From positions 1 through 29,735 of IMG/VR virus record IMGVR_UViG_3300033407_000093: a stretch of DNA of 29,735 nt. One strand, 5' to 3'. Source of the stretch: a virus (lineage: Duplodnaviria > Caudoviricetes). Position numbers and translations under genes: made by a program. Positions 2,796 through 18,979 of this stretch are shown here, piece by piece (within the stretch, counting starts at the first letter, position 1; every line of letters starts with the position of its first letter). The notes under the pieces are model-generated. The model saw only the letters and a list, made by a program, of their open reading frames with translations. It ran no database searches and was not told the origin of the DNA.

Positions 2796-3020
2796 ATGAG
2801 CAGGAAGAAACCCAACAAGGTCTATGCGGTTCGCAAAATGGGCTTCCATGCGGTTTTCGCGTTTGCGATTGCGCGTCATAGCAAAGGCGCGATCTCGGTC
2901 GTGCGCGCTCATTGCACCAACGCACCCAAGTATCTCGTCGCGACAGAAACCGACCGCGACCCGACCAAGGAAACAAACGCCTGCAACCCTATGAAGAGGA
3001 ACTTGATTGATGACAACTAA
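2796..3020 (+). CDS. Hypothetical basic protein
   Basis: GAGG RBS then ATG 2796; fills the gap between DUF3164 and GapR. Confidence 0.45.
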   Translation: MSRKKPNKVYAVRKMGFHAVFAFAIARHSKGAISVVRAHCTNAPKYLVATETDRDPTKETNACNPMKRNLIDDN

Positions 3021-3330
3021 GTCCAAAGAGACGCCGCGCCGTGAAGGCGATAACAGCTTTGCCAAAGGACGCCTGCGCGATTTCTTTCAGCGGATCGAGC
3101 GGCTCAACGAAGATATCGAAGCTCTGAACAGCGACAAGTCCCAAGTTTATCAGGAAGCCAAGGCCGAGGGCTTCGACGTCACCATCATGCGGGTAGTCCT
3201 GTCACGCCGAAAGATGGATCGCGCCGATGTTCAAGAGCGCGATGCGCTTGTCGAACTTTACGAGAGCGCTCTATCTGGCACGAAACCTGCTACGCGTGCA
3301 CGCGCACGTGAGGACGGGGCCGATGAATAG
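3010..3330 (+). CDS. gapR: GapR/DUF2312 (UPF0335) nucleoid-associated protein
   Basis: LRDFFQRIERLNEDIEALNSDKSQVYQEAKAEGFDVTIMRVVLSRRKMDRADVQERDALVELYESAL matches the GapR consensus. Confidence 0.9.
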   Translation: MTTKSKETPRREGDNSFAKGRLRDFFQRIERLNEDIEALNSDKSQVYQEAKAEGFDVTIMRVVLSRRKMDRADVQERDALVELYESALSGTKPATRARAREDGADE

Positions 3331-3610
3331 TCCCGCCGCCACGCTGCAGGCTCAACCGCTCACCTTGCGCAAGCTCTGCCGGGTCAAGCGTTGTGCCGAG
3401 CTTCGGCCTCTCGGGCGGCTGCTCTGTGATCATCACGAGACGATGGTACCCGAAAAGCTCGCCCAGCGGATCGCGTTCGCCAACAAGCGATTTACAGCCG
3501 CTGCCATCGATGGCGACATCGGCCGCGCCATGCGCGCCCTCCAGGACGGGCTGAATACCGAGCGCCAGATTTGCGCGGCGATCGAAAGGCAGGAGGCATC
3601 CGATGCATAG
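3323..3610 (+). CDS. Hypothetical protein with C-x4-C..C-x2-H motif
   Basis: ATG 3323 after a GAGGA RBS; CRVKRC..LCDHH putative Zn ligands. Confidence 0.55.
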   Translation: MNSPAATLQAQPLTLRKLCRVKRCAELRPLGRLLCDHHETMVPEKLAQRIAFANKRFTAAAIDGDIGRAMRALQDGLNTERQICAAIERQEASDA

Positions 3611-4274
3611 GCATTCCCTCTTGCTGATCGGTGCAGCCATGCTGTTCGTCGCTGGCTGTCAGACGACACCTGTCAGGTCCTCGCAGCTCGCCATCGGTCA
3701 GCAAGTGCTGCCGCCTATGGGCTTCATCGGATTTTGCCTGAGCGACCCGACACAGTGCGAAGGCGGCACGGACATGCCCGCCAGGGCGCAACTGACGCCC
3801 GCACGATGGTCCGAGCTCAACGCCGTCAATGATTACGTGAATGCGAATGTGCCCCAAATCGAAGACATCGCGCATTATGGCGTAAGCGAAAAATGGTCAT
3901 ATCCAGACGCCACAGGCGGCGACTGTGAGGACATGGCGATGTTGAAGCGCAAGCTGCTCATCGCTCGCGGCTGGTCTCCCTCCAATTTGCTGCTCACGGT
4001 CGTGCGTGATTGGAGCGGCGAAGGTCATGCCGTGCTGGTCGTCACAACCGACAAGGCCGACTACGTCCTCGACAATCTCAATGCGATGATCGCGCCCGCG
4101 AATGAAGCGCCCTACACATGGATCAAACGCCAGTCGCGCGAACGTCCCTACATCTGGGTTGATCTTGACGAAAAGACCTTCCGCACGGCCGCCAATGACA
4201 CACTGCCTCCGGTCGGCGCGCCCGTTCCCTTCGTGGTGGCCGCCCAGGCATTCGCGAAGGAGCTGAGAAAATGA
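3603..4274 (+). CDS. Transglutaminase-like cysteine peptidase (BTLCP, peptidase C93) lipoprotein
   Basis: Lipobox FVAG-C; PPMGFIGFC; catalytic triad motifs GDCED, GEGHAVL, YVLDN; GGAGG RBS. Confidence 0.9.
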   Translation: MHRHSLLLIGAAMLFVAGCQTTPVRSSQLAIGQQVLPPMGFIGFCLSDPTQCEGGTDMPARAQLTPARWSELNAVNDYVNANVPQIEDIAHYGVSEKWSYPDATGGDCEDMAMLKRKLLIARGWSPSNLLLTVVRDWSGEGHAVLVVTTDKADYVLDNLNAMIAPANEAPYTWIKRQSRERPYIWVDLDEKTFRTAANDTLPPVGAPVPFVVAAQAFAKELRK

Positions 4275-13228: not shown

Positions 13229-14494
13229 ATGGGCACGGTTGCCACAGGCGACAGCGTTGCGCCAAAGCCAGCGCCGGTGCATTTCACCGAGGCGATCGAC
13301 TATCTGCGTAACAAGACCCGCCTGCCGACGCGCGCCTGGACGGACCTCTGGCAGGATCAGCATGCCCGTGCCTTCGTCGTTGCAGGGGCAATGAAAGACG
13401 GGCTTGTCGCCGATTTCCACGAGGCGGTGACGAAGTCGATTGCCGAAGGAAGGACGCTTGAGGACTTCCGCAAGGACTTCGACCAGATCGTCTCGACGCA
13501 TGGTTGGAGTTACAATGGCTCGCGCGGCTGGCGATCGCGGACAATCTTCGAAACCAATATGCGAAGCGCCTATTCGGCCGGGCGCTGGGCTCAGGCCGTC
13601 AAGCTCAAGGCGCAGCGTCCCTATCTGCGCTACGTTCACGGTCACCCCAGGCACCCGCGCAAATGGCATCTCGCATGGAACAACACAATCCTGCCCGTCG
13701 ATCATCCGTGGTGGAAGACGCATTTTACTCCCAATGGCTGGGGCTGCCAGTGCACCATCCAGAGCCTGTCTGAAAGCGACATGCGGCGTTATGGCTACAA
13801 GGTCTCGCCGGACCCCGAGCCGTCGAAGATGATTGCCCACAAGCTCAACACGCCGGATGGCCCGGTGACAGTGAAGGTGCCCGAAGGTATCGATCCGGGC
13901 TTTGCCTTCAATCCCGGCGAGGGCGCATTCGGGCGCGGGGCCAATCTCGATGCGATCGAGAAGCATGGCGGCTTTGTTGATCTCCAAGCGCCAAGCTCCA
14001 GTCGCACGACGGCTGGCAACCTTGATGCCGTCACAACACAGACGCAGCCCGCGCGCCTGCCACCAATACTGCCGGATGCCAAACCGGACGAGAAGGCATG
14101 GCGCGATCTTCTCCACCGCTCGATAGGTGGCGAAGAGGCTATCTTCACTGATCCGGTCGGGCAGCGCGTTTCCATTACTGATGCTGTCGTTGATCATCTT
14201 CTGGCGAGCGGCCGAACTGAAGACATGGGCCGTGCAGCCTATTGGCCCTATATGCGCGAGCTCATCGAAGCGCCTCAGGAAATCTGGGTCGGCTTTGCCA
14301 AGGACAAGGTCACGGGTCGCGTCGCCCTGAGGCGTCGCTATGTGAAGCTCATCCAGCTCGGCAAGGACCGCGTCGTCGCCCTGGTTGTGGACGAGCAGGC
14401 GGGCTATTGGCAGGCTTTGACCTTTTTCACGGGAAGGCCCGGCACTCAGCTCGACAATCTCAGGAAGGGGGTTCTGGCATACAAGGCCGGATAG
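13229..14494 (+). CDS. MuF (gp30) minor head protein with C-terminal PBECR2-like nuclease-fold extension
   Basis: AFVVAGA, TIFETN..AYSAGRW, R..H..W, PNGWGCQC, GIDPGFAFNPG; extension has ELIEAPQEIW..RRRYVK..TFF..LRKG.LAY. Confidence 0.88.
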   Translation: MGTVATGDSVAPKPAPVHFTEAIDYLRNKTRLPTRAWTDLWQDQHARAFVVAGAMKDGLVADFHEAVTKSIAEGRTLEDFRKDFDQIVSTHGWSYNGSRGWRSRTIFETNMRSAYSAGRWAQAVKLKAQRPYLRYVHGHPRHPRKWHLAWNNTILPVDHPWWKTHFTPNGWGCQCTIQSLSESDMRRYGYKVSPDPEPSKMIAHKLNTPDGPVTVKVPEGIDPGFAFNPGEGAFGRGANLDAIEKHGGFVDLQAPSSSRTTAGNLDAVTTQTQPARLPPILPDAKPDEKAWRDLLHRSIGGEEAIFTDPVGQRVSITDAVVDHLLASGRTEDMGRAAYWPYMRELIEAPQEIWVGFAKDKVTGRVALRRRYVKLIQLGKDRVVALVVDEQAGYWQALTFFTGRPGTQLDNLRKGVLAYKAG

Positions 14495-14556
14495 GGAGCT
14501 ACAGGTCCGCACGCCCTGCGCTCGCTCACCGTGACGGAAGAAGGCATGCGGCCAGC

Positions 14557-14577
14557 CGTCAGGCGCTGACGATTTTT
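14557..14577 (+). terminator. Putative intrinsic terminator after muF
   Basis: CGTCAG-gcg-CTGACG then ATTTTT; short stem. Confidence 0.45.
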
Positions 14578-14791
14578 ACCCCCTCAGGGCCAAAAATTCA
14601 AGAAGTCAGATTTAAGGCTCACAGGCGCTCAGAGGGCCCTTTCCGGGCCCGTCATACCCGAAAAATCCTGCAACGCATTTTGCAACGCGCTCTGAGGCGT
14701 TTGGGGGGCGATTTGCCCTCGACCGAGCCCCTGAGGACGTCCGGGCGGCAAACTGACCAAAAAGGGATGAAATCGGGGGGCGAACCCCCTG

Positions 14792-14814
14792 ACCCCGACA
14801 ATTGTCGGGGTGCC
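14792..14814. promoter_or_regulatory. Palindromic operator, copy 2 (candidate late activator site, PI-like)
   Basis: Perfect 20-bp palindrome ACCCCGACAATTGTCGGGGT plus GCC, upstream of the protease gene. Confidence 0.75.
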
Positions 14815-14857
14815 ACGGCGAAGCCGCAAGGCAGAAGGTCAGGACCTCAAGAGGTTC

Positions 14858-16054
14858 ATGACCTCAAGCCTCACAGATGCGGAACGGTTTGCCAAGATGA
14901 AAGCGTTCGAAATTTTCAAGCCCGGCACTTTTACGGCAGAGGGCGGTCAGGTGGTCAATTTCACGAGCGACATGCTCGCGGAAGTGGCCAGCTCCTATAA
15001 CCCGGCGCTTCACGAAGCGCCGATGGTCGCCGGTCATCCCAAGAATGACGATCCGGCCTATGGCTGGATACGTGGCGTGACCTATGAAGACGATCGCCTC
15101 ATGGCCGATCCCGATCAGGTGGATACCGCTTTCGCCGATATGGTGGCCGCCGGTCGCTTCAAGAAGCGTTCGGCCTCCTTCTATCCGCCCAAACATCCCG
15201 GCAACCCCACGCCAGGCAAATGGCACCTGAAGCATGTCGGCTTCCTCGGTGCGATGCCCCCCGCCGTCAAGGGCCTCAAGGAAGTCGCCTTCGCCGAAGA
15301 CGAAGAGCCCGTGCTGACGATCGAGTTCAGCGATGGCGAACGCACGATCGGATGGGCGCTGCGCAACATGGCCGATATGGCACGCGGCATTCGCGACTAC
15401 ATCCTCACGCGCGATGGCGAGGACGTCGCCAACAAGGTCATCCCCACCTACCAGATCGACCAGATGATCGCCGACAGCACTCGCATTGTTGTCGAAGCCG
15501 AGGCCGAACCTTCTTTCTCAGAACAACCCCTTACGGAGGACACCGTGAAACTCACTCAGGAACAGCTCGACGCCCGTCAGGCGGAGCTTGATGCTCGTGA
15601 AACCCAGATCGCGACCCGCGAGACGGCTATCGCCACGCAGGAAACCAGCTTCTCGGAAGCCCAGAAGCAGACGCGCCGTGCGGCCCATGCCCTCGTGCTC
15701 GACCAGCTGATCGCCGATGGCAAGTTCGTGCCTGGCATGAAGCCCGCGACGCTCGACTTCCTCGACGGTCTGGACGCTGCCACGACTGTTGAGTTCGGTG
15801 AAGGCGACGGCAAGACTGAAGCGACGCCCGTCGACTGGTTCATCAACCTGCTGAAGTCGTCCGGCACGGTCGTTGATTTCTCCGAGCGTGCGGCTGCAAC
15901 GGACAAGGACAAGGACGTGGTTTCCTTCGCTGCCCCCGATGGCGCGACGATCGATCCCGTGCAGCTTGAGCTCCACAACAAGGCGCTCGCCTATCAGGCT
16001 AAAAATCCAAACGTCGAGTACATGGACGCCGTTCGCGCCGTCAATCACGGCTAA
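14858..16054 (+). CDS. Prohead protease/scaffold (Mu gpI-like)
   Basis: FEIFKPG, APMVAGHP..PAYGW, KKRSASFY, LKHVGFLGAMPPAVKGL; start 14858 (AAGAGG RBS) or 14897. Confidence 0.88.
   Translation: MTSSLTDAERFAKMKAFEIFKPGTFTAEGGQVVNFTSDMLAEVASSYNPALHEAPMVAGHPKNDDPAYGWIRGVTYEDDRLMADPDQVDTAFADMVAAGRFKKRSASFYPPKHPGNPTPGKWHLKHVGFLGAMPPAVKGLKEVAFAEDEEPVLTIEFSDGERTIGWALRNMADMARGIRDYILTRDGEDVANKVIPTYQIDQMIADSTRIVVEAEAEPSFSEQPLTEDTVKLTQEQLDARQAELDARETQIATRETAIATQETSFSEAQKQTRRAAHALVLDQLIADGKFVPGMKPATLDFLDGLDAATTVEFGEGDGKTEATPVDWFINLLKSSGTVVDFSERAAATDKDKDVVSFAAPDGATIDPVQLELHNKALAYQAKNPNVEYMDAVRAVNHG
15545..16054 (+). CDS. Scaffolding protein (gpZ-like) from an in-frame internal start
   Basis: GGAGGA at 15535-15540 then in-frame GTG; coiled-coil follows; parallels Mu I/Z. 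Confidence 0.65.
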   Translation: MKLTQEQLDARQAELDARETQIATRETAIATQETSFSEAQKQTRRAAHALVLDQLIADGKFVPGMKPATLDFLDGLDAATTVEFGEGDGKTEATPVDWFINLLKSSGTVVDFSERAAATDKDKDVVSFAAPDGATIDPVQLELHNKALAYQAKNPNVEYMDAVRAVNHG

Positions 16055-16591: not shown

Positions 16592-17530
16592 ATGGCACCG
16601 CTTAATAATGCCTCCGCCCGCGTTGTCGATCCGGTTCTCAGCCAGTTCGCGCGCGGCTATCAACAAGCCGGTTTGATCGGTCGCGTTCTTTTCCCCCGCG
16701 CCTTTGTGCCCGTTCGCGGCTTCAAACGTGTCGAGTTCGGCAAGGAAGGCTTCCGCCTCTACAACACGCGTCGTGCGCCCGGCACTGCTACCAAGCGGCT
16801 GGTCTTTGGCTATGACGGCAAGCCCGCCTCGCTTGACCAGCATGGGCTTGATGGCGTCGTGCCGCGCGAGCACGTAGGCGAGGCCGCTGCCGGTCCCGGT
16901 ATCGACCTGCAGCAGGAAGCTTCCCGCGTCGTGCTCGATGCTATGCAGCTTGACGAAGAAGTCTCTCAGGCGGCGCTGGCGACGACAGCTGGCAACTATG
17001 CTGCTGCCAACAAGGTGACGCTCGCAGGCAGCGACCAGTGGAGCCATGCCGACAGCAAGCCCAAGGATGCTGTCAAGGAAGGCAAGGAAGCGGTCCGCTC
17101 CAAGATCGGTCGCAATCCGAACGTCATGGTGATTTCCAAGCCGATCTTCAATGCACTCGACGATCACCCTGCGCTGCTCGACAAGCTGAAATATACGTCC
17201 GGCGCCAGCATCACGACGGACATCCTTGCCCGCTATTTCGATGTCGACAAGGTTGTGGTCGGTGAAGCCGTCTACACGGACGGCGACGAAACCAGCTTTA
17301 CCGATGTCTGGGGCAATTTCTGCGTGCTGGCCTATGTGCCTCAGGGCGGTCAGCCCAGCGTGCGTGTGCCCAGCTACGGCTACACCTACACGCTCGCCGG
17401 TCATCCCTTCGTCGAACAGACGCGCTGGGATGCCGACGCCAAGAGCTGGATCAACGGTGTGACCGATGAACGCTCGGCCGAGCTCGTGGGTGCGGAAGCT
17501 GGCTACCTGATGTCCAGCGTCATCGCCTAA
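16592..17530 (+). CDS. Major capsid protein
   Basis: 312 aa; VDPVLS..ARGY, FGKEGF..TRRAPG, PSYGYTY; AAGGA RBS; synteny. Confidence 0.88.
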   Translation: MAPLNNASARVVDPVLSQFARGYQQAGLIGRVLFPRAFVPVRGFKRVEFGKEGFRLYNTRRAPGTATKRLVFGYDGKPASLDQHGLDGVVPREHVGEAAAGPGIDLQQEASRVVLDAMQLDEEVSQAALATTAGNYAAANKVTLAGSDQWSHADSKPKDAVKEGKEAVRSKIGRNPNVMVISKPIFNALDDHPALLDKLKYTSGASITTDILARYFDVDKVVVGEAVYTDGDETSFTDVWGNFCVLAYVPQGGQPSVRVPSYGYTYTLAGHPFVEQTRWDADAKSWINGVTDERSAELVGAEAGYLMSSVIA

Positions 17531-17562
17531 TCCCCAACCGGCAACGCCAGAGGATCATTTCA

Positions 17563-17850
17563 ATGGCCACCAAACCAACGACCCCCGCCAAGCCCAAGGC
17601 CGAGAAGGCCCCAAAGGCGGACAAGCCTGCTGCTGCGCCCAAACCGGCAAAGCCGAAGGAAGAAGCCCAGAGCTTCGAATTCGCCGTGATGAGCGCGGTG
17701 CGGGTGAATGGCAAGCGTCGCGAAGCTGGCGAAGTCGTCGAGCTCACGATGGATGTGGCGCAGGGGTTGCTCGATGCCGGTGTGATTTCCACCGACTTGC
17801 CCGATGACGAAGTCACCGAGCCGGTCAAGGAAGACGATACCAAGGAATAG
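17563..17850 (+). CDS. Small head-associated protein (Mu gp35 position) with K/P/A-rich N-terminus
   Basis: VRVNGKRREAGEVVEL..A..LL..GVI motif; GAGGA RBS. Confidence 0.7.
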   Translation: MATKPTTPAKPKAEKAPKADKPAAAPKPAKPKEEAQSFEFAVMSAVRVNGKRREAGEVVELTMDVAQGLLDAGVISTDLPDDEVTEPVKEDDTKE

Positions 17851-18060
17851 CGCGGACCGCATCCCGCGCTATCACCGGCGATGGGGGATTGTCGCTGGTT
17901 TACCGGTGGCGGCATTTCTCGATGGATGTCGCCACCGGTCGGAATTTCAGAGGGCGCTTGTCGCCCATGCTTGGAGGACGGCAGGTGATCGTCCTTCTCC
18001 AAAGCCCTGGACGTTGCATGTGTTGTGTTTGGTGCAACGTCCAGGCACCGCCCTTGAAAG
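17847..18060 (+). ncRNA. Candidate structured cis-regulatory RNA (multi-hairpin leader)
   Basis: Six stems covering nearly the whole intergenic region; most non-Watson-Crick positions are G-U on the + strand. Confidence 0.6.
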
Positions 18061-18069
18061 GATGTTTTC

Positions 18070-18297
18070 ATGATCCTCTATCGACGCTTCTTCCATTCAG
18101 CTTTCGGCTTGATTTGCGGCTTGGCTGTCGCCTGCTTCGTTTCCATCCTCTTGATAGCGGCAGGGATCGACTATCTCGCTGCGCTGCTCACACCGCCTCT
18201 CAAGGTGGTGCGTCTGCGCATCGGGGCGCTCGCCGCCAAATGCCGCCATCGCATCACGCATGCCGGTGGCATCTTCGTGCAGGCGGTGTCTGCATGA
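18070..18297 (+). CDS. Small membrane protein
   Basis: 75 aa; long hydrophobic stretch then basic C-terminus; AAAGGA RBS; ATGA-coupled to ACP. Confidence 0.6.
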   Translation: MILYRRFFHSAFGLICGLAVACFVSILLIAAGIDYLAALLTPPLKVVRLRIGALAAKCRHRITHAGGIFVQAVSA

Positions 18298-18557
18298 ACG
18301 ACCTCTCGTTGCGCATCCGCGAAATCATCGCCGACGTCATTGTCGGCTGCCCGATGTCACCCGAAGAGATGACACCGGTGACGCGGCTGCGCGACGAGCT
18401 CGGTGCCGACAGTCTCGATGAAGTCGAGATCAGCATCGAGATCGAGGAGAAGCTCGGGGTCGCTCTTGCCGATGAATTTCTCGACGAGGTCAAAACCGTT
18501 GGTGACTTTATCGCGGGCACGGATGCCCTTCTTATTGCAAAGGCGATGTCCAAATGA
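18294..18557 (+). CDS. acpP: Acyl carrier protein homolog
   Basis: 87 aa, acidic; RIREII..ELGADSLDEVEI..IEEKLG..DE..VKTVGD aligns with AcpP; Ppant Ser40 codon at 18411-18413. Confidence 0.9.
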   Translation: MNDLSLRIREIIADVIVGCPMSPEEMTPVTRLRDELGADSLDEVEISIEIEEKLGVALADEFLDEVKTVGDFIAGTDALLIAKAMSK

Positions 18558-18979
18558 GCTCCTACGCAACCAAACAGAACCTTATCGATCGCTTCGGCGA
18601 GCTTGAGCTGCTCCAGCTCACCGATCGCACGCACACGCCTCAGACAACGATCGACGACGCTGTTGTCGATGATGCGCTGAATGACGTCGCCTCGCAGATT
18701 GATGGCTATGTCGGCGCGCGCTATACGCTGCCGATCTCGCCGGTCCCGGCGCGCCTCACCAAGGTCGCCTGCGACATCGCGCGCTATTACCTCTTCGGCC
18801 GCGCTGCCGACGAGGTCGTGCGTCAGGCTTATGAAGACGGGGTGAAGTGGCTCGTCGAAGTCTCCAAGGGCATTGTCCAGATCAGCTCCGAAAGCGTGGG
18901 CGTCCAGCCTGCCATCGGCGGCGTTCAGACAAGCGTCCCGCCTTCCCTTTTCGACCAAGACAGTCTGGACCAGTTCTGA
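18554..18979 (+). CDS. Head-tail adaptor (Mu gp36/DUF1320)
   Basis: YAT..L..RFG..EL.QLTD, IDGYVGARYTLP, CDIARYYL. Confidence 0.9.
   Translation: MSSYATKQNLIDRFGELELLQLTDRTHTPQTTIDDAVVDDALNDVASQIDGYVGARYTLPISPVPARLTKVACDIARYYLFGRAADEVVRQAYEDGVKWLVEVSKGIVQISSESVGVQPAIGGVQTSVPPSLFDQDSLDQF

Follow-up and report, generated by a model that had tools for sequence, protein, structure and literature searches.

What could an acyl carrier protein (ACP) gene and a small hydrophobic open reading frame (ORF), preceded by a strongly folded leader, be doing between the head and neck genes of a Mu-like phage? Judged by Pfam and PHROG gene content, the DNA analysed here (29,735 bases, referred to as the window) comes from a long-tailed, transposable phage of the Mu-like kind, of which it covers 29.7 kb, with transposition B, GemA, Mor, a lysis block, gp27, terminase, portal, gpF, protease, capsid, gp36 and neck genes as well as tail tube, tape measure and tail tip genes. 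It represents a one-contig virus record that starts within the transposition B gene and breaks off within the tail-tip gene, with both genome ends missing. An alphaproteobacterial host is suggested by GapR and BTLCP protease genes and by the best matches of gp36 and the capsid protein. The first two are host-type genes, a GapR-like DNA-binding gene in the early region (3007-3330, E 1e-24) and a full-length BTLCP transglutaminase-like protease gene with a lipoprotein-like start (3603-4274, E 3e-57). Further, gpF (13229-14494) carries a fused PBECR2 nuclease-like domain at its C-terminus (E 8e-25). Most of the window sequence is present in soil and sediment sequencing runs, and a diverged variant of the region is found in wastewater runs (X4-X6, all from one study). 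Runs X4-X7 are labelled RNA and flagged as probably DNA, and were used as contigs, not as expression evidence.

Layout of the insert upstream of gp36

The insert consists of 703 bases separating the gp35-like gene from gp36 and comprises six predicted hairpins, a 75-residue hydrophobic ORF and an 87-residue ACP (Table 1). ATGA overlaps connect the hydrophobic ORF to the ACP gene (18294-18297) and the ACP gene to gp36 (18554-18557). An initial sequence-only reading of the window had described an insert of about 700 bp holding a folded leader, a 75-residue membrane protein and an ACP chained by ATGA overlaps; all of these are present, the membrane assignment being a prediction. In the ORF list, the ACP appears only as the tail of a 222-codon TTG frame. 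Upstream of the ACP start, its frame stays open for a further 135 codons, from 17889, running through the leader and the membrane-protein gene. A fused membrane-ACP protein was considered and rejected, as a length-free search of 1.84 billion representatives returned only 75- and 80-residue proteins.

Table 1 Features of the insert and its flanking genes.
Feature	Position	Strand	Details
gp35-like small head-region gene, after the major capsid gene	17563..17850	+	DUF7210 (E 0.0011) and phrog_2322 (E 0.00036), both weak
Hairpin 1	17847..17872	+	9 base pairs, overlaps upstream stop codon; z -4.2; no difference listed in X4-X6
Spacer without called gene	17851-18069		219 bases
Hairpin 2	17874..17899	+	11 predicted pairs including G-U, then three U; z -4.5; no difference listed in X4-X6
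Hairpin 3	17902..17939	+	14-16 base pairs, inverted repeat I2; z -6.8; no difference listed in X4, X5
3' leader domain with hairpins 4, 5 and 6 and alternative long-range stem	17945..18060	+	Centroid structure
Hairpin 6	18006..18045	+	Perfect 13-base-pair stem, inverted repeat I4; among the window's longest true stem-loops
Shine-Dalgarno-like AAAGGA of the membrane-protein gene	18057..18062	+	Unpaired probability 0.01-0.74 per base, four folds
Predicted membrane-protein ORF	18070-18297	+	75 codons
ACP ORF	18294-18557	+	87 codons, PF00550
gp36 head-tail adaptor	18554-18979	+	PF07030 (E 2e-36), phrog_195 (E 5e-44); start overlaps ACP stop

The cassette has a genome-like base composition (GC 0.57-0.60, GC3 0.71-0.72). 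No sigma-70-like promoter site was found on either strand of 17400-18700, although alphaproteobacterial promoters may escape a sigma-70-type consensus, and the only terminator-like site of the 17400-18700 scan lies within the ACP gene, matching chance expectation. Morons are defined by their own promoter before the gene and an intrinsic terminator after it; as far as the sigma-70-type consensus scan reaches, the cassette does not fall under this definition. No phosphopantetheinyl transferase (PPTase), acyltransferase or fab family was matched by Pfam among the 49 larger window ORFs (27 + 22), which agrees with the sequence-only reading. Judged by their sequences, both cassette ORFs look like real genes.

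The phage ACP and the predicted membrane protein

The ACP passes the PF00550 gathering cut-off (36.8 vs 20.8 bits, E 4.9e-9) and matches phrog_5934 (E 1e-11). Its attachment serine, Ser40, is part of an Asp-Ser-Leu motif (codon 18411-18413), and the modelled helix starts at residue 40. The structural model adopts the four-helix ACP fold (pLDDT 90.4), and all 41 Foldseek matches listed are ACP chains or ACP-containing complexes, with query-normalised TM scores of 0.63-0.81 to ACPs. The protein is acidic, containing 19-21 Asp/Glu residues. It scores below every NCBIfam cut-off, reaching 41.8 vs 70.45 bits for the TIGR00517 equivalog (43.2-57.9 for four clade relatives), and is 35-38% identical to four alphaproteobacterial AcpPs. 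Its neighbours are phage genes, not a fabG-acpP-fabF neighbourhood. A three-residue insertion in loop I carries Gly-Cys-Pro, and helix II is altered after the serine. In the seven A5 sequences, Asp-Ser-Leu and Glu45 are kept and Gly-Cys-Pro is common, while the host Asp-Thr pair after the serine motif is replaced; the ACP thus looks loadable but specialised.

An alignment search, in which the best 7999 candidates were scored, ranked a small group of close ACP relatives ahead of ordinary ACPs. In a tree of 37 sequences, based on a short alignment and containing several long branches, the seven chosen members together with P0033 form one branch (support 96/81). This clade excludes two host AcpPs of Alphaproteobacteria as well as the ACPs of phages R6L and Bajun, and has P0031 and P0034 as sister rows. 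P0031 and P0146 are sister ACPs of the clade, and P0146 occurs on 13 contigs of up to 545 kb, so that a relative may be present in a bacterial genome or prophage. In clade member P0033 (8612-base contig), Asn replaces the attachment serine and 15 residues are inserted, making the protein a possible unloadable carrier mimic. A search with A5 at E 1e-17, run without a positive control, retrieved 0 of 9 and 4 of 391 genomes, the four hits being host-type AcpPs beside fab-like genes. Atlas look-alikes scored at most 0.78, under the useful level. The ACP of the wastewater variant (X4) shows at least six synonymous and at least two non-synonymous changes, counted from 28 of the 41 differences on that contig, with the latter located at the protein ends. 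P0022 differs from the window ACP at exactly those two terminal residues.

The product of the 75-residue ORF is predicted to be a membrane protein (mean hydropathy over 19 residues 2.7). The corresponding structural model has two helices at low confidence (pLDDT 67), and the protein is predicted to consist of a hydrophobic N-terminal helix, a Pro-Pro break and a basic C-terminal helix with 7-10 Lys/Arg and 1-2 acidic residues. A profile search of 1.84 billion representatives yielded two clusters only. Four relatives are available (P0021, 69%; P0024, P0025 and P0026), which share 45-69% identity and span 75-83 residues. Conservation is uneven, with a variable hydrophobic N-terminal half and a well-kept basic C-terminal helix; Arg-Leu-Arg-Ile, Cys58-Arg-His-Arg and Ala-Gly-Gly are invariant. 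The gene has a GC3 of 0.71, and codon changes in its compared 3' part are four synonymous and three non-synonymous. No Pfam, PHROG, NCBIfam or PADLOC family matches the protein, and its alignment retrieved none of 401 genomes of one alphaproteobacterial order in a search run without a positive control. In PADLOC 2.0, five of six proteins matched no family, and P0003 gave Drt4 at E 0.033, which was treated as noise. An LYR-type ACP-binding motif at the N-terminus of the membrane protein was discarded as it is absent from three of the five relatives.

Leader RNA, recurrence of the two genes and variability of the slot

The predicted leader fold has an energy of -110.8 kcal/mol (z -5.18), equalled by none of 200 shuffles. 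The minus strand scores z -5.66, so the z-score alone cannot assign the strand. Hairpins 2 and 3 hold G-U pairs and the plus strand is about 7 kcal/mol more stable; for hairpin 2, the energies are -14.3 (plus) vs -7.4 kcal/mol (minus). On the plus strand, hairpins 1, 2, 3 and 6 each fold better than all 200 shuffles, while hairpins 4 and 5 do not. The 900 bases upstream of gp36 contain 11 stems of at least eight pairs, five of them in the spacer, compared with at most seven in 81 other distinct upstream stretches listed, some of which are shorter. When 247 120-base windows of the genome were scanned with 15 shuffles per window, the best leader window came fourth (z -4.5), behind 14761-14880, 15001-15120 and 3601-3720, two of which lie inside genes; folding of such strength is thus not unique in this genome. 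The strongest of them, 14761-14880 (z -6.4), belongs to a second hairpin cluster at 14490-14900 between gpF and the protease gene, whose start is probably an ATG near 14859-14898, not the GTG at 14810. The other two represent strong predicted folding in the 5' parts of the protease gene (15001-15120, z -5.5) and the BTLCP gene (3601-3720, z -5.3).

Rfam 15 gave no match in the window at the gathering score and seven sub-threshold matches in 17500-18700 at chance level. Neither a tRNA nor a tRNA remnant was found in the window, and no match to the Mu-gpT-DE or C4 RNA families was obtained. Within the 3' leader domain, 17952-17956 is predicted to pair either locally with 17962-17966 (probability 0.25-0.64) or distally with 18049-18053 (0.35-0.69). 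A two-state ribosome-site switch was considered on this basis and is unsupported, as the Shine-Dalgarno-like sequence is mostly paired with or without the distal stem in the folding predictions. In a single 151-base X2 contig (depth 3.9), the left arm of hairpin 6 is changed along with three unlisted differences in 18034-18067, a pattern compatible with covariation but not demonstrating it.

Whether leader, membrane-protein gene and ACP gene travel together can be followed in a few relatives. It should be noted that gene order is directly visible in just two places, the window and a 722-base X4 contig that joins the membrane-protein gene, the ACP gene and gp36; elsewhere, co-location was inferred from equal contig size in bases. 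By such equal-size matches, a 46507-base contig encodes capsid, gp35-like protein, membrane protein, ACP and gp36. A 7930-base contig encodes a capsid (98% identical), gp35-like protein (97%), membrane protein (69%) and ACP (98%), and a 29462-base contig a capsid (94%), membrane protein (54-56%) and ACP (56-58%). Cassette proteins can diverge far faster than the capsid, which fits an exchangeable, host-facing module. Overall, a size-matched clade ACP exists for three of five membrane proteins and a size-matched membrane protein for four of ten clade ACPs. P0025, P0026 and six clade ACPs are without such a partner, mostly on short contigs and after incomplete searches. A1 scans of genome and metagenome contigs returned 15 and 34 loci, where gp36 was seen only in L073, the window's own contig. 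Viral-contig scans with ACP, A1, A5, membrane-protein A2/A3, capsid and leader-motif queries returned no relative; gp36 alone gave loci.

The wastewater runs resolve the insert further. The variant differs from the window at two positions in 17790-17945, run X5 carries a diverged stretch of equal length in place of 17946-18033, and 18111-18209, the middle of the membrane-protein gene, is diverged, with hairpins 1-3 and the ACP retained. A loose end in run X6 encodes part of P0021, the same allele as on the 7930-base contig. Replacement of the 3' half of the leader and the membrane-protein gene with the ACP kept ties the RNA to the membrane-protein gene and not to the ACP. The reading initially suggested is supported in part, as both genes look real and recur together in diverged relatives; a single three-part module of RNA, membrane protein and ACP does not follow, the 3' leader varying with the membrane-protein gene and not with the ACP.

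A comparison of 98 other gp36 loci, reduced to 74 distinct ones with at least 800 bases upstream, places the insert in a wider context. None of the 74 carries the ACP or the membrane-protein gene; the insert is rare. Instead, a tRNA-Met(CAT) is located directly upstream of gp36 in 5 of 37 distinct alphaproteobacterial loci (L110, L114, L124, L138, the same prophage as L150, and L151) and in 0 of 37 viral-contig loci. Among relatives found in genomes, L138 and L151 have the most similar capsid proteins (65-66%). Bases 1 and 72 are unpaired in four of the five tRNAs, and the anticodon stems differ in all. An unpaired 1/72 position is a hallmark of initiator tRNAs. Elsewhere, the slot contains tRNA-Met with or without hairpins or small unrelated ORFs. 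The slot is thus an accessory site whose cargo varies among prophages, the window carrying one of several kinds.

In L001 (1710-1994) and L002 (1712-1996), a 94-residue hydrophobic ORF follows the capsid gene behind short hairpins; the two copies are 87% identical to each other and match no family, and homology between the L001 ORF and the membrane protein of the window was rejected (probability 0.07). A start motif, AT(A/G)CCCAG, recurs in L113, L124 and L138 and at loose ends at 17945 in X4 and X9; L113 and L124 have roughly 30 more bases in common, a hint of an as yet undescribed RNA element in the slot. No alignment was obtained for a common structural motif of the slot spacers.

Possible functions and comparison with known systems

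We hypothesize, tentatively and as a possibility rather than a probability, that the insert is an accessory two-gene cassette whose ACP, activated by the host and likely held at the membrane, would serve late in infection as a stand-in or decoy for host AcpP. The observations behind this hypothesis are the position of the cassette, its overlaps, the ACP fold with its serine, the separate clade, the recurrence of the two genes and the variability of the slot. The cassette would be transcribed within the late message, consistent with the lack of a promoter-like site, and host AcpS would add phosphopantetheine to the phage ACP, in line with the lack of a PPTase match in the window. The acidic ACP could then dock on the membrane protein through the latter's basic C-terminal helix and be held at the inner membrane, where the pair may replace host AcpP or draw its partners away. 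Solved precedents for an ACP as a subunit on a membrane protein, MmpL5-AcpM and Emb-AcpM, are among the sequence and fold matches. Hairpins 1-3 might signal processing or a step-down of the message behind the high-copy head genes, and hairpins 4-6 might form a translation-control region of the membrane-protein gene. In one relative, the membrane protein changed by 31% and the ACP by 2%, which runs counter to tight one-to-one co-evolution; the basic C-terminal helix is the conserved part of that membrane protein.

The phage would benefit if the host response depletes, senses or uses AcpP, a hypothetical target suggested by analogy with phage tRNAs (PMC10264068) and Mu-like anti-CRISPR slots (PMC4378225). 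According to the accessible parts of these papers, phage tRNAs have been proposed to counter tRNA-depleting defences (PMC10264068) and accessory slots in Pseudomonas Mu-like phages hold anti-CRISPR genes (PMC4378225). By the same analogy, the tRNA-Met found in the slot may be another spare copy of a housekeeping part, parallel to the ACP. This parallel is weakened by the general avoidance of tRNA-fMet by phages where the anticodon itself is cut, as described in the same text (PMC10264068). No defence system acting on or through ACP was found in the literature searched. A bolder version appears rather unlikely: a dedicated ACP of the cysteine-loop clade would join the membrane protein in a complex, under control of the hairpin leader, and this complex would intercept host acyl traffic at the membrane or acylate its own cysteine and so beat a hypothetical ACP-dependent antiphage response. 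If true, the complex would mirror, at the protein level, the spare tRNA-Met carried by other phages at this position.

The insert might instead hold three independent passengers, namely generic hairpins, a separate small accessory gene and an ACP adding carrier capacity to host lipid synthesis. We regard this as conceivable yet doubtful. Unrelated hairpin clusters and small genes do occupy the slot, or follow the capsid gene directly, in other prophages (tRNA-Met; the L001/L002 ORF), equally strong folding exists elsewhere in the genome, and most clade ACPs lack a linked membrane-protein gene among the sequences compared. Lone ACPs without a named membrane partner also occur in unrelated phages, and acpP has been read as metabolic in the accessible part of PMC8224337. 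However, the window ACP is far from host AcpP in identity and in TIGR00517 score, has no fab neighbours and, unlike the short-branched Brevundimonas phage ACP, forms its own clade, and membrane-protein gene and ACP gene were replaced jointly on the 29462-base contig. The behaviour of the 3' leader and the membrane-protein gene, which co-vary in X4-X5 at constant ACP like allelic specificity modules, would also suit a toxin or superinfection-exclusion unit, type I toxin-like or receptor-blocking, that is expressed in the lysogen as well, with the ACP as antidote or bystander. A small hydrophobic protein with a basic tail, a folded leader and a ribosome site predicted to be paired are in keeping with such a unit, but the region 17400-18700 has no sigma-70-like promoter (alphaproteobacterial ones may be missed), no Rfam antisense family or PADLOC match was found, and 75-83 residues exceed the size of most type I toxins, making this account unlikely.

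Two further proposals assign a more direct chemical or structural role to the ACP. The host-loaded ACP could pass its acyl chain to Cys58 of the membrane protein, yielding a lipidated effector in a self-contained pair that needs no acyltransferase. Cys58 is invariant in all five membrane proteins and lies in a basic patch, Cys19 in the inserted ACP loop is invariant in the seven A5 sequences, translational coupling is 1:1 and no acyltransferase was matched in the window. Invariance among so few related sequences is a weak argument, though; an enzyme-like motif is lacking, the Asn of P0033 replaces the serine within the very same clade, and the flanks of Cys58 are not a lipobox following a signal peptide as usually defined, so that such a pair seems quite improbable. 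A virion assembly role, in which the ACP might for example assist gp36 or a different neck protein as a cofactor or by donating an acyl group, is very improbable. The cassette is embedded in the morphogenesis operon and its ACP stop codon overlaps the start of gp36, but such overlaps join many late genes in this phage, 0 of 74 other distinct gp36 loci have an upstream ACP, and in the closest capsid relatives from genomes gp36 directly follows the tRNA. The earlier suggestion of an acylated virion component thus finds no support, nor does a role at gp36, which does without the cassette in all the other loci examined.

Phage ACP genes have been catalogued for years without tested function (PMC5463345, PMC8224337, accessible parts), and the function of the R6L ACP is stated there as unclear (PMC5463345). 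The cassette offers a small testable case, combining a specialised ACP clade, one candidate partner and natural alleles of 55-98% identity. If the ACP acts as a decoy or spare, this would point to a host antiviral step acting on acyl carrier protein; if it only boosts lipid synthesis, the cassette would put the metabolic reading to its first test. The family is small, and neither a cultured phage nor a host for the cassette was found, which limits near-term work. The sequence-only reading knew of no description of such an arrangement. An ACP in a Mu-like phage is not new, as the accessible part of PMC8224337 records a lone acpP for two roseobacter prophages of the Mu-like kind, prophage 2 of Celeribacter marinus and prophage 1 of Loktanella atrilutea, with no fabF or fabG row, and takes it as a lipid-metabolism gene. 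The pairing with a membrane protein before gp36 was found in no paper of the full-text literature searched, outside of which most subscription papers lie, nor were the specialised clade, its fixed place before gp36 or the tRNA-Met alternative found there. A term search of the accessible part of PMC7824862 returned no mention of ACP.

Compared with known systems, the tRNA-Met loci are similar to the cassette in position before gp36 and often in the presence of hairpins, but the window has no tRNA, and its leader aligns unconvincingly with their spacers. The plasticity regions of Pseudomonas Mu-like phages, as presented in the accessible part of PMC4378225, resemble the slot in holding short accessory ORFs at fixed variable positions, some with counter-defence functions; they differ in host group and cargo, and their anti-CRISPR slot is low in GC, whereas the GC of the window cassette is genome-like. 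Likeness to the roseobacter acpP genes is by description only, as the accessible part of PMC8224337 gives no position, neighbour, RNA or membrane partner. Bacterial AcpP (PF00550, TIGR00517) shares the four-helix fold, Asp-Ser-Leu and the acidic surface with the window ACP, which differs by the loop I insertion with Gly-Cys-Pro, the altered helix II and the absence of a fabG-acpP-fabF context, an arrangement seen at the host-type loci compared. Other phage ACPs (phrog_5934; Erythrobacter phage vB_EliS-R6L ORF 32 and Brevundimonas phage vB_BgoS-Bajun BAJUN_00790) are, like the window ACP, stand-alone proteins of alphaproteobacterial phages, and no fab gene is annotated within 1.2 kb of the R6L and Bajun genes. 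These two ACPs are only 34-38% identical to the window ACP and fall outside its clade, and they are encoded amid small hypothetical and methyltransferase genes, whereas the window ACP is encoded between head and neck genes.
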